This document shows, piece by piece, positions 27,307 to 35,027 of a DNA stretch of 64,000 nucleotides (its first letter is position 1; each line of letters opens with the position of its first letter). A program made the position numbers and the translations under genes. Below the pieces are notes generated by a model. The model ran no database searches. It was not told the origin of the DNA and worked only from the letters and a program-made list of their open reading frames with translations. The DNA is from Octopus vulgaris (lineage: Eukaryota), in the NCBI GenBank assembly GCA_951406725.2, contig OX597841.1, positions 9,486,001 through 9,550,000 of the forward strand, in the 5' to 3' direction.

Positions 27307-27700
27307 TTTAATTAGAATATTTATTTAGTACAACATTCGTTTTAGCTGCCTTCTGCACCGTTTTTTAATGAGTGGAGACCGATGAAATGACATCAGATGC
27401 ATCGCACAGGGTACGGAGCCTGATCAGGTGATGTGATATGCCTCAAAAGTTATAAGAGTTCGTTTCAAGCCACATGCAGCTGGTATTATGTGTGAACAAC
27501 AAGCAACACAACGTAATACTACCAGCATCTAACTTGAAGTGAAATATAAATCTTATCATTTTTGAAGTATACTACGTCACCTGATGAGGTTCGTTTGCAC
27601 TGCATGATGCAGCTGATAGCATTACATCATTCCCCACCCACTAGGGAACAGTGCAGAAGGCAGCCGAAACGATTGTTGTGCTAAATGAAACTTCTAGTTA
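27307..27700. repeat. Diverged palindrome, arms of about 190 bp
   Basis: tttagtacaacattcgttttagctgccttctgcacc is the inverted counterpart of agtgcagaaggcagccgaaacgattgttgtgctaaa. Similarity continues to the centre near 27500. Confidence 0.85.
27578..27680 (+). ncRNA. Type I hammerhead ribozyme motif with extended stem II
   Basis: cac-CTGATGA-ggtt..tttgcactg[...]cagtgcaga..agcc-GAAAC-gatt-GTT-gtg. A decayed antisense-strand twin lies in the left arm. Confidence 0.7.
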
Positions 27701-28715
27701 CAACCCGTCTGTCGTATCAGCCATTTGCAATATACTCAAAGTGCAACTAAAAATTCTGTACGTAGATCCAGCGACGAAAGCGCAGCATCGCAGATTATGC
27801 CCGGAAAGCACAAGTGGTGAACGTGCTCTGCAGACACATTTCCTGGGAATTACCGACTCAGCCGGTAACAAGATTTGAATACTGCATTTCAATGTCTCCT
27901 TATCTAAAACCTTAACTTTGATTTTAATTTTAACTTAGGTTAGCATTAATCTTCAATGATTACTTAGGATAGTTTCTGCTCCAACGCCATTTTTGACGCC
28001 ATTGCACGCAAAATTTGCCGGTGAAAGTTTATGTAACATTTGCGGTTTTAAACATTAGAGCTACTCTGTATCAGACTCGCAACAAATAAAACGGAAATTG
28101 AAAGAAGTCAATTTTGCGTGTGTGTGTGTGTGTGTGTGTGTGTGTTCGTATACTTTTTCCCATTATTAAAACTGAAAGAAAATGACAAAAATCCTCTGCT
28201 CTGAGTTTCACAGTCTCGCTCGTCGGACAGTTGAGATGATTCCATTCTTGATCGCAGCTGCCCGACGAACTCTGAGTAGCGGTTTTTTTGTGTGATGTTC
28301 TTGCAGCTTTAATAACGAGAGAAAGCATATTACTCTACCTCTGGTATTCGAGTACTATTTGTGTGTAAGTGTAATTTAAATAAGCAGAAAATGGAGAACA
28401 TTTTGATCAACAAATAAACAAATTGACCAACATCTGTTAATTATTTTTTTAATACAAAACATAACATAACATTACAAATATATATACATATACATACATA
28501 CACACACACACACACGCACACACACACACACACACACATATTTATATATATATATATATATATATATATATATAAGCAAAACAATTTAGATTCAAAAGAA
28601 TATGGTACTTAACTTAGATGCACCAAAATTTTTTTATGGTATTAACCATAAAATTATGTGATTATAATTATAGGTGATTATAATCAAAAATAAGCAACAA
28701 GAATGGATCCGGTAA

Positions 28716-28802
28716 TTTAGTACAATTGTTTCATACTATAAACATTTTATTTTAAGCTGCAAATATTACAGCAAATATAATGTCAAGTATTCTTCAGCTA
28801 AA
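28716..28802 (-). ncRNA. Type I hammerhead ribozyme motif (left arm)
   Basis: Reverse-complement counterpart of 29217-29303 with an intact core. Confidence 0.75.
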
Positions 28803-29216
28803 TATCCTATAGGTTTTGCAAACATTCTAGAGAGTGTAAATATCCTTATGAAGTTATAGGAGTGAGTTCCATGAATTTGAAGTAAGATTCCAAGCAGACT
28901 ATATATGTTTTCCAACAATACAAAGTTTTTAAAATGATTATTGACATCCCAGAGAAGATAAATTTACTCATAAAGATGTGGATATAAGTTCCAAGAGACA
29001 TGAGGATAGATGCCGGTCAGACCACTGGAATTTATATCCGCATCTTTATGAGTAGATTTATCTTCTCCGGGATGTCAATAATCATTTTAAAAACTTTGTA
29101 TTGTTGGAAAACATATATAGTCTGCTTGGAATCTTACTTCAAATTCATGGAACTCACTCCTATAACTTCATAAGGATATTTACACTCTCTAGAATGTTTG
29201 CAAAACCTATAGGATA

Positions 29217-29303
29217 TTTAGCTGAAGAATACTTGACATTATATTTGCTGTAATATTTGCAGCTTTAAATAAAATGTTTATAGTATGAAACAATTGTACT
29301 AAA
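29217..29303 (+). ncRNA. Type I hammerhead ribozyme motif (right arm)
   Basis: tttag-CTGAAGA-atact[long hairpin]agtat-GAAAC-aatt-GTA-ctaaa. Palindromic loop 3; predicted cleavage after 29298. Confidence 0.8.
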
Positions 29304-29399
29304 CTACCGATCCATTCTTATTGCTTTTTTCTTGGTTATATATATATATATATATATATATATATATATATATATATATATATGTGTGTGTGTGTGTGT

Positions 29400-31641: not shown

Positions 31642-33796
31642 TATATATATATATATATATATATATATATATATATATATATATATATATATATATATAT
31701 ATATATATATATCCCTCTCCCTCTCTTCTTCTTCATCCTTTCTGGTTTTCTTTCTCCTCTTCTCTTCACCGTTCCCTCTCTCTCACTCTTTCTCCTTGAC
31801 TCTCTCGTCGCTGACACGTGACGAAACGGAATCTATCTCTCTGCCCGTATCCTTCCCAAAGACAACACGTGCTTATACCTGTCTCCCCTCATAAGCTCGT
31901 CTTCCCAGCGTTCGTTATAATTTTTCTATCGTCTTAACAGCCCTCACCGTTTGTTTTTATTGTCTTGTTATCACTGTCCTGTTCTTGTTATCACTTTCAC
32001 CCTCTGCAAAATGTCCAAAATTTTATTTAATTTGCTTTGTAGGAAGGACTATTTCAATGAAGTCGCGTATTATCCTTGCCTTCAAAACGCAGAGTAGATG
32101 AAACAGGGACAACTGATGAAGGGGGATGTTCTTTATGTTGCATGTCTCGTTTCTCTGGGTTTTTTTTTTCGTTGTTCGATAAAAAGTTCGTTTTCTACGT
32201 TTTTGTTTTTATGTTTTCGTTTCTTATTGTGTTCAACGTTTTCTTCATGTCCTGTACCCATATATGCAGAAACGTTAGCACGCCGGGCGAAATGCGTAGC
32301 CGTATTTCGTCTGTCGTTTCGTTCCGAGTTCAAATTCTGCCGAGGTCGACTTTGCCTTTCATCCTTTCGGGGTCGATAAATTAAGTACCAGTTACGCACT
32401 GGGGTCGATATAATAGACTTAATCCCTTTGTCTGTCCTTGTTTGTCCCCTCTGTGTTTAGCCCCTTGTGGGTAGTAAAGAAATATATATATATATATATA
32501 TATATATATATATTTATATATATATATATATTTATATATATATATATATATATATATATATATATATATATATATATATATATATATATATATATATATA
32601 TATATATATATATATGTAGGTAGGTATGTACATTTATGTATGTATATATTTATATATTATTTATATTATATTATATTATTTTATATTATATTATATTATA
32701 TATATGTATATATATATATAAAAGTAGACAAATGGTACAACAAGGCACCAATATTTACTGGAAAATAGCAATCGATATGAATACGACGCTATTGTATAGC
32801 TTCACTGCCTATTTACTAGCAAAGACGCGTGTGTGCAACAAACATGAAATATATATATATATATATATATATATATTGTTGTGTGTGTGTGTGTGTGTGT
32901 GTGTGTGTGTGTGTGTGTGTGTGTGTGTGTGTGTGTGTGTGTGTGTGTGTGTGTGTGTATAAAATACTAAAATGGACAAGAACGCAAAACATCCAGACAG
33001 GTAAGACAAAAAAAGGAAAACAAAATATCCAAGTGTCTTCTGCTATAGCCCCGGGCCGACCAATGCCTTGTGAGTGGATTTGGTAGACGGAAACTGAAAG
33101 AAGCCTGTCGTTTATATGTATATATATATATATATATATGTGTGTGTGTGTGTGTGTGTATGTGTGTGTGTTTGTGTGTCTGTGTTTGTCTCCTAGCATT
33201 GCTTGACAACCGATGCTGGTGTGTTTATGTTCCTGTCACTTAGCGGTTCGGCAAAAGAGACCGATAGAATAAGTACTGGGCTTACAAAGAATAAGTCCCG
33301 GGGTCGATTTGCTCGACTAAAGGCGGTACTCCAGCATGGCCGCAGTCAAATGACTGAAACAAGTAAAAGAGAAAAGAGAAAAAGAGAGACAGACGATACA
33401 AGAAAAACAAGGAGGGATCATTGGGATTTTTCTATCCTCAGTCGAGTTCCAGATTATCTTTGCAATTTCGGTTGGTTATACTCGATATATATATTCTGTG
33501 TGTACATCTTTGTGTCTGTGTTTGTCCCTCCCCCACCGCTTGACAACCGGTGGTGGTGTGTTTGCCTCCCCGTAAGTTGGAGGTTCGACCAAAAAGGACC
33601 GATAGAATAAGAACCAGACTAAAATAATTCAAGACGGTGCTCCAGCATAGCCGCAGTCAAATGACTGAAACAAGTAAAAAAGTAAAGAATAAAAGATATC
33701 AAGTGAAGAACAATGGGAAAATTTATAGACCTAGACACACACACACACACACATACATATAAAATCAAAACAAGCAACAGGATATCAAGAAGTGAT

Positions 33797-33880
33797 ACAG
33801 TACGGCCGTTTCAAGCGGCTTCATTTAATTGAACAATGCAATCATTACATCAATTTAAATGCAGGGCTATCCTTGGCTGC
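33797..33880 (-). ncRNA. Degenerate hammerhead motif
   Basis: gcag-CCAAGGA-tagc[hairpin]gctt-GAAAC-ggcc-GTA-ctgt. The 5' core is mutated and loop 3 is palindromic. Confidence 0.45.
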
Positions 33881-34022
33881 ACAAATAAATAAATAGGATT
33901 TTAATCAGTCGGATTACCCAAATTCTCTAATAGAGCAAGAAGACAGAAAAAAATCCATGTTGTCGCTATTGTAGCTACGAAAATTGATGCAGTTTTAATT
34001 CTTGCTTTATTTCGTGCCAGTG

Positions 34023-34860
34023 TGTAGACCAACCAATCGCAGCCTTCTGATAAGATCCCGTAACACAGTCTTCTAGGTTCTCCTCTTGAACCCAGTAATC
34101 TCTTTAAAAGCTAGATCAACAGACCGTAATTCGTCATTGGTTATAGTCCTTCTTAGGACTAACATCTGACCACAGTGTGACTCAACCATGTTCCAGCGAC
34201 CGTGACACCAACACCAGCAACATTTCAGGACCTTTCTCCACCGTCGTCTTCATCTATACGTACACAGCAACTCGCCCAGGTTTAACCACGCTGTTTGTGA
34301 ATACTCACCAAGGTTAACAGCTAGCCTATCTGCGAGAACCTTCTGTACCAAGTAACCCGGCACAGCATTGAAGCCACAACCGCTACACGACATGTGTTCA
34401 ACCGACCTCTGCCTTCTGACGACCAACTTCATTGTTACCGAACTATTACTGTTGCGTTTCTTACTACGAACTGGTATTTAACTTCATTATGTGTCTGATC
34501 TACCACTAGCGTCCTGATAGACTCATTTCTATGCTCTGTATTTTATCTCACACGTATACACTTTGTTTGTGCACACTTACACATTATTGTATGCATTGAC
34601 GGCCTGTCTATTTGTCTATTACTATTGTTCTTATTATATATATGTACTTATGACGCAAACACACAGACACACTCTGCTACCCGCATGTCAACACCTGAAT
34701 AAAACCTTTCTCTTAAACATATCGGCTGTGTCGTCTTCTCTCTTATTCCTTTTGGCACTTATTCATTTATCCATATTTTGGCTTTAATTGTAAGGCGACC
34801 GTGCGGTGTTTAAAGGGGTCATTCATTCGTCACCGTCTCCTTTTGTACGGTCGTTCTACA
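34023..34860 (+). mobile_element. Possible solo LTR
   Basis: tgtagaccaacc ... ggtcgttctaca (TG..CA inverted ends) and aataaa near 34698. No target duplication seen. Confidence 0.4.
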
Positions 34861-34889
34861 TTATATATATGTATATATATATATATATA

Positions 34890-35027
34890 AGGTCTTACAG
34901 CTGTTTCCAGGATATTTATTATATCCCTTCATCGGAGACGGTGTGAGAAGACTATTGCTTAACCATTCTCTCACACCGTCTCCGATGAAGGGATATAATA
35001 AATATCCTGGAAACAGCTGTAAGACCT
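34890..35027. repeat. Perfect 59-bp-arm palindrome abutting (TA)n
   Basis: 34890-34948 is the exact reverse complement of 34969-35027. Confidence 0.95.
34978..35025 (+). ncRNA. Hammerhead motif, CCGATGA core variant (twin on the - strand at 34892-34939)
   Basis: gtct-CCGATGA-a-gggatat-aataa-atatcct-g-GAAAC-agct-GTA-agac. Confidence 0.65.

Follow-up and report, generated by a model that had tools for sequence, protein, structure and literature searches.

Hammerhead-bearing palindromes of Octopus vulgaris as probable stumps of head-to-head Penelope-like insertions

Scattered minimal hammerhead motifs have been ascribed to truncated Penelope-like elements (PLEs), and a 2014 study reported dual minimal hammerheads on opposite strands, ~100 to 700 bp from each other (PMC4209133). 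The parts of the literature that deal with PLE insertion describe an inverted 5′-truncated copy, a one-sided tail of 30 to 40 bp and (TA)n targets (PMC8557442), a head-to-head layout as the most frequent Penelope arrangement, together with small RNAs against Penelope copies (PMC3846280), and nicking at AT-rich DNA, with two start sites of reverse transcription that explain the tail and with ribozyme cleavage dispensable for insertion in vitro (PMC11167929). Here, we describe four palindromes (E1 to E4) in a 64,000-nt window of the Octopus vulgaris genome (GenBank assembly GCA_951406725.2, contig OX597841.1, forward-strand positions 9,486,001 to 9,550,000; the window is this whole stretch, and coordinates count from its first letter), three of which carry motifs of the type I hammerhead ribozyme (HHR). 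We consider each palindrome very likely to be the stump of one PLE retrotransposon insertion, with E1, E2, E3, and E4 coming from unrelated families.

The window is AT-rich, animal-type DNA with many microsatellites, fragments of reverse transcriptase (RT) resembling long interspersed nuclear elements (LINEs), plus short repeats that we take to resemble octopus short interspersed nuclear elements (SINEs). Palindromes were checked by self-BLAST and by alignment of their arms, and HHRs were sought on both strands with a descriptor of the core (C3-U4-G5-A6-N7-G8-A9 / G12-A13-A14-A15.1 / U16.1-H17, with helices I to III), for which 40 block-wise dinucleotide shuffles served as the control. The descriptor yields 9 matches in 64 kb, compared with 0.4 ± 0.6 (maximum of 2) in the shuffles, and strict matches number 6 against 0.05 expected; one match, at 29560 (−), sits in a SINE and looks like chance. 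A search with the Rfam hammerhead families, which a first-pass annotation of this DNA had proposed as a check, gave no match to the elements at an E value of ≤10 in three local scans, and no hammerhead appears among the best 150 of 272 rows of a whole-window scan; the Rfam matches that do occur are microRNA (miRNA) models below their gathering scores, driven by hairpins and microsatellites.

That annotation had described three palindromes, and possibly a fourth, with no evident similarity outside the core and with a type I hammerhead in both arms, the + strand copy always on the right and the − strand copy on the left. Self-BLAST and arm alignment confirm E1, E2, and E3 (E1 being wider than first given), and the four elements have nothing in common beyond stretches of 10 to 14 nt. 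The stems it quoted (tttag/ctaaa, cac/gtg, and gtct/agac) are correct and paired, and the polarity holds in 3/3 cases, or 4/4 if the palindrome P6, described below, is counted; this polarity is the plain head-to-head arrangement, which reads the same from either strand and amounts to one bit per element. What did not stand is the presence of HHRs throughout: both arms carry one in E2 and E3, but only the right arm in E1 and neither arm in E4, such that intact cores in both arms are found in 2 of the 4 elements.

E2 in full spans 28575..29336, between (TA)n runs at 28543-28574 and 29337-29382. Its palindrome (28679-29340) consists of arms at 28679-28993 and 29026-29340 that are identical at 305/314 positions (9 mismatches plus gaps) around a centre of 32 nt, and its left copy continues ~105 nt further, from 28679 to 28575, with no extension on the right. 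Both HHR cores are canonical, and helix II has 5 bp plus a long extension. The right-arm HHR (29217..29303, +; descriptor match at 29222+) has the core CUGAAGA, stem I TTTAG/CTAAA, a palindromic helix III, and a GUA triplet with a predicted cut after 29298; the left-arm HHR (28715..28803, −; match at 28797−) has a helix I of 6 bp. The arms are free of mismatches over 28754-28950 (~197 nt), all 9 mismatches lying outside, and this uniform middle may reflect gene conversion between the arms or assembly polishing.

E3 (34890..35238) joins two copies of a repeat of very high copy number, one inverted (34890-34948) and one direct (34951-35238), with (TA)n at 34872-34889 on its left and TA-rich DNA on its right. 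Within the palindrome (34890-35027), the arms show no mismatch and flank a centre of ~20 nt (34949..34968, +), which from 34951 on is family sequence of the direct copy only. The right copy extends ~210 nt beyond the mirror arm, to ~35238, and the left, inverted copy terminates 6 nt beyond the predicted cut site. The right-arm HHR (34978..35025, +; match at 34982+) reads CCGAUGA (a U4C change), with stem I GTCT/AGAC, a 7-bp helix II that has an A·G mismatch at its base, a palindromic helix III, and a GUA triplet with a predicted cut after 35021; the left-arm HHR (34892..34939, −; match at 34935−) is identical to it.

The E3 family, the only one of the four covered in this way, was examined in the contigs of four public runs, which contain at most 0.63 of E3's sampled words. 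Contigs placed on the E3 region number 4937, 5661, 4197, and 842, and the summed depth over the HHR reaches 10^5 to nearly 10^6 in three runs, compared with 27 to 75 for single long pieces (a ratio that is not a copy number); the family is plainly very abundant. Upstream of 34951, 91, 130, 155, and 26 contigs enter one shared non-mirror sequence (agreement of 0.75 to 0.81) and not the left arm; therefore, the "loop" of E3 is ordinary family sequence kept only by the direct copy, the inverted copy ending ~18 nt nearer the HHR. Beyond 35238, 30 and 38 contigs run on into TA-rich letters. Each of the best 15 of 26 joints is carried by a single contig in its run, at depths of 16 to 67 that resemble those of single-locus pieces (27 to 75), and the strand changes at 4 of these 15. 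In one contig of run X1 (depth of 52), the family forms another palindrome, centred elsewhere (n = 1): 31 letters lie at its centre, of which the first 21 match the reverse-complemented upstream family sequence at 20 positions (by eye), making its inverted arm 21 nt longer. No listed public contig spans E3 itself, and the contigs probably do not come from this locus.

These contigs bear on the first-pass proposal that the palindromes are double-ribozyme fold-back retroelements, each a unit with the same loop in every copy, for which differing centres had been named beforehand as a refutation. The E3 family continues upstream in non-mirror sequence, and its only other palindromic copy found has another centre, which points against the proposal for E3 on the strength of n = 1. 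At U4, the canonical T occurs in 75, 91, 92, and 35 contigs (6 to 19% of depth), and C seems to prevail in the family, in a count that may lean towards the reference letter. None of the 24 runs listed is recorded as RNA; places with A>G differences number 5 in run X15, whose RNA nature is only guessed, similar to the 5, 5, and 7 of the other three runs.

The remaining two elements are more decayed in their motifs. E1 is a head-to-head palindrome (27277..27734) whose arms are identical at 166/216 positions (77%), around a centre of 12 nt; 31 of the 50 mismatches are transitions, and the palindrome is old. The right-arm HHR-like motif (27578..27680, +; match at 27581+) has a 3-bp helix I (CAC/GTG), a helix II with a 4-bp base and a long extension, a GUU triplet, and an imperfect, non-palindromic loop III. 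Its left-arm counterpart (from 27427 down to ~27329, −), located by arm comparison, has a mutated core, CTGATCA with C for G8 and AAAA with A for G12, and fails the descriptor. The descriptor had been loosened after E1 was viewed, and because of this E1's pass is partly post hoc and weaker than the others. E4, suggested in the first pass as a possible fourth case at 29400-30057, is indeed a palindrome (29399..30058; outer arms 45/48 identical, inner arms 40/47), one that a tandem SINE-like repeat (~29441-29865) interrupts, but its hammerhead does not stand: the decayed minimal HHR-like core at ~29943-29975 fails the descriptor.

Three further palindromes in the window resemble these elements in layout. 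P5 (31513-31641, or 31420-31641 with its extension) has 30-nt perfect arms, a 69-nt centre, and a one-sided extension of ~93 nt between (TA)n runs, and gives no HHR descriptor match. P6 (42072-42274, or 42014-42274 with the extension) is TA-flanked and lopsided, its left copy continuing 58 nt further than its right; it holds a single HHR (42143-42192, +), in the palindrome centre and one arm only, with a G3:C8-swapped core pair, a helix I of 7 bp, a helix II of 5 bp, a palindromic helix III, and a UUU triplet. P7 (42359-42646; arms 126/131) has no recognizable HHR, and a one-armed sister at 15377-15550 continues through its centre.

We infer the PLE identity of the elements from HHR type and anatomy, and likewise an origin by target-primed reverse transcription and inversion. 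Under this scheme, a protein with RT and GIY-YIG domains, encoded elsewhere, would nick AT-rich or (TA)n DNA and copy the 3′ pseudo-long terminal repeat (pLTR) region containing the HHR, and a second, inverted copy would be placed head-to-head with the first. The lopsided centre would follow from unequal 5′ stopping points of the two copies, and the one-sided extension from unequal 3′ starting points; for two HHRs to arise, both copies would have to end upstream of the motif. The features expected of PLEs recur across the elements: an HHR in the terminal repeat with a short palindromic helix III (E2 and E3; imperfect in E1), an inverted and differently 5′-truncated copy placed head-to-head (the E3 contigs and the asymmetric centres of E1, E2, P6, and P7), unequal ends in E2, E3, P5, and P6 with an extension at one end (105 nt on the left of E2, 210 nt on the right of E3, and 58 nt on the left of P6), and, in E2, E3, P5, and P6, two flanks made up of TA runs or TA-rich DNA, such DNA also lying at the loose ends of the E3 family at 35238. 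The one-armed HHR of P6 and the one-armed sister crossing the centre of P7 are parallels within the same window. The link to PLEs with inverted pLTRs, already drawn in the first pass, is supported by the arm alignments and by published insertion structures (PMC8557442 and PMC3846280).

Several observations weigh against an origin as PLE stumps. A GIY-YIG domain was found in 0/75 open reading frames (ORFs) scanned near the elements (101 ORFs of ≥58 amino acids in 26.5 to 36.3 kb and 41.9 to 47.1 kb, minus 26 of low complexity), and no PLE protein is linked to them; two RVT_1 matches at 44.7 to 45.2 kb presumably belong to a LINE. Stumps are expected to have no RT/GIY-YIG ORF nearby. The extensions of 105 and 210 nt exceed the published tail of 30 to 40 bp. 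E1 has at its ends neither a (TA)n run nor a target-site duplication that is evident, such that the siting in (TA)n noted in the first pass stands for the flanks of E2 and E3 but not for E1, and E1 could be a decayed MITE (miniature inverted-repeat transposable element) with a chance motif. Centres and copy number were seen for E3 only, in contigs holding that limited share of its words, and contigs across E3's own junction are too short for listing, so that copies with an identical centre could escape the count.

The last point bears on the idea that these are non-autonomous two-armed elements that move in trans as one unit and whose RNA is possibly under the control of the hairpin or HHR. 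A symmetric layout, the near-identical arms of E2 and E3, and the reported ability of pLTR sequences alone to drive integration in trans (PMC3846280) speak for such a unit, and recurrence of E3's own junction lies beyond the reach of the listed contigs; however, the non-mirror upstream continuation in 26 to 155 contigs per run, the single-copy joints, the second palindrome with its other centre, the lopsided ends, the broken core in E1, the failure of both cores in E4, and the cost of the HHR fold in read-through RNA (given below) make it improbable. We judge equally improbable that the palindromes are MITE-like and derive from DNA transposons, their long terminal inverted repeats holding the motifs by chance or as passengers. 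This explanation is most plausible for E1, where one arm passes and then only with the relaxed descriptor and where the ends lack (TA)n, and for E4, with its 45-nt outer inverted repeats, but it sits poorly with the excess of strict motif matches, with arms that reach the centre without an internal spacer, with the unequal ends, and with an E3 family that is usually one-armed at 34951. Least probable of all, and very much so, is that E3 and the middle of E2 are fold-back assembly or polishing artefacts: identical arms in E3, the mismatch-free stretch of E2, and the lack of a listed contig spanning E3 would suit an artefact, whereas the divergence between arms (50/216 in E1 and 9/314 plus gaps in E2), the asymmetric centres and ends, and a similar fold-back junction in an independent public contig would not.

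Folding energies, taken from an equilibrium model in which helices I and II were forced and the core left open, bear on what the motifs could do as RNA. In isolation, the HHR fold would cost 1.3 (E2), 3.2 (E3), and 5.8 (E1) kcal/mol; in read-through RNA, it would cost 106 (E2), 74 (E3), and 80 (E1) kcal/mol. The HHR of P6, at 2.1 kcal/mol in read-through RNA, would not be masked. The first-pass claim that a read-through hairpin masks its own ribozyme is thus upheld by these costs, but the proposed switch between self-cleavage and double-stranded RNA (dsRNA; a putative ADAR or Dicer substrate) is not, because any one strand of an element carries just one HHR in the sense orientation, transcription reaches the antisense partner of this HHR before it, and forming the fold would take 74 to 106 kcal/mol. 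HHRs with a 1-bp helix III are thought to require a dimer (PMC4209133 and PMC6765202); the helix III loops could form 8-bp self-duplexes (−5.8 to −11.1 kcal/mol), and a partner from the same family is absent from the strand. Heterodimers between the E1, E2, and E3 motifs were rejected by reasoning from their unlike helices I and III. Read-through RNA would bury the motif in a long hairpin, where it is most likely inert, and only RNA initiated in the centre would be predicted to expose it. It seems unlikely, though less far-fetched for E2 than for other families, that PLE proteins acting in trans spread some families as entire two-armed units, with read-through RNA forming a ribozyme-masked hairpin that feeds ADAR or small-RNA pathways and centre-started RNA exposing a working non-canonical hammerhead (U4C in E3 and G3:C8 in P6). 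On the core variants themselves, U4C is described as lowering activity in vitro yet permitting viroid infectivity (PMC3088659), and the G3:C8 swap as an engineered rescue of partial effect (PMC11167929); the natural variant in the literature consulted is U3-A8, and no report of a natural G3:C8 was found in a search that lay outside the PLE-variant study of Lunse et al. (RNA Biol 14:1499) and its supplements.

The window holds other features of related kinds. A solo LTR-like repeat (34023-34858) with inverted termini TGTAGA/TCTACA adjoins E3, and its end is multicopy in the public contigs; nearby, a minimal HHR-like motif at 33780-33830 (−) is decayed, with a broken 5′ core beside a palindromic helix III. 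A solo HHR outside any palindrome (46436-46531, +; helix I of 7 bp) lies ~200 nt behind LINE-like ORF fragments and shares its helix III and its A·G base of helix II with E3. Two similar minimal HHR-like motifs lie 200 nt apart on the same strand, at 43578-43610 (+; core decayed) and 43775-43807 (+; passing the descriptor), and may be retrozyme-like or a PLE remnant. The "cluster" of the first-pass annotation was rejected as a functional unit: the elements are unrelated and interspersed with SINE-like repeats, the solo LTR, and microsatellites.

In a metagenome collection, the exact E3-family pattern matched 0 contigs, and a general HHR pattern matched at least 116 loci (23/64 parts searched). 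Filters on helices I and II were passed by 7/118 matches, of which one (L028, 1045-1190) lies in a palindrome that by eye is head-to-head, with its second core cut short. L028 belongs to a small family of motifs with L034, L053, and L086; in L028, and by eye in L034, a cut-short inverted copy stands directly upstream, head-to-head. Another match (L044), inside a zinc-finger gene, was set aside as chance, and the metagenome matches are too few to use.

If the palindromes are PLE stumps, they are ordinary, adding further examples of PLE insertion by-products, and are of use chiefly as a warning that such stumps can mimic MITEs or miRNA hairpins. There is modest further value: centres and ends compared over many copies would bear on how PLEs build the inverted copy, and, as candidate natural core variants, the G3:C8 motif and the high-copy U4C family lend themselves to simple assays. 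Were the palindromes instead mobile two-armed units, they would be non-autonomous retroelements of a new kind and would supply long dsRNA genome-wide.

Judged by listing, the mollusc and cephalopod literature yielded no report on these families, and comparison is with systems described elsewhere. As far as they are described, non-LTR retrozymes (PMC7229834; bioRxiv 10.64898/2026.07.22.740005) are likewise short, non-coding, and probably PLE-derived, with a type I HHR, but they are head-to-tail tandem repeats with at least two HHRs on the same strand; the elements here are inverted, with no direct repeat of a unit and one sense HHR per element and strand. The metazoan PLE hammerheads, in the features given for them (PMC4209133), are like the motifs here of type I with a short helix I, a long helix II, a 1-bp helix III with a palindromic loop, and a predicted need for a dimer, and form opposite-strand pairs at these same distances. 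E3 differs from them by U4C and by the A·G mismatch at its helix II base, E2 by an A10.1-U11.1 pair, and E1 and E2 by helix II regions of 58 to 78 nt. Endonuclease-positive PLE insertions, in the structures described (PMC3846280 and PMC8557442), share the head-to-head inverted copy, unequal 5′ truncation, one-end extension, (TA)n targets, and an HHR near the 3′ end, whereas the elements here retain no ORF, have no discernible target-site duplication, and carry extensions of 105 to 210 nt compared with the published 30 to 40 nt. The structures are of a known kind, and the families are at most new members of it.

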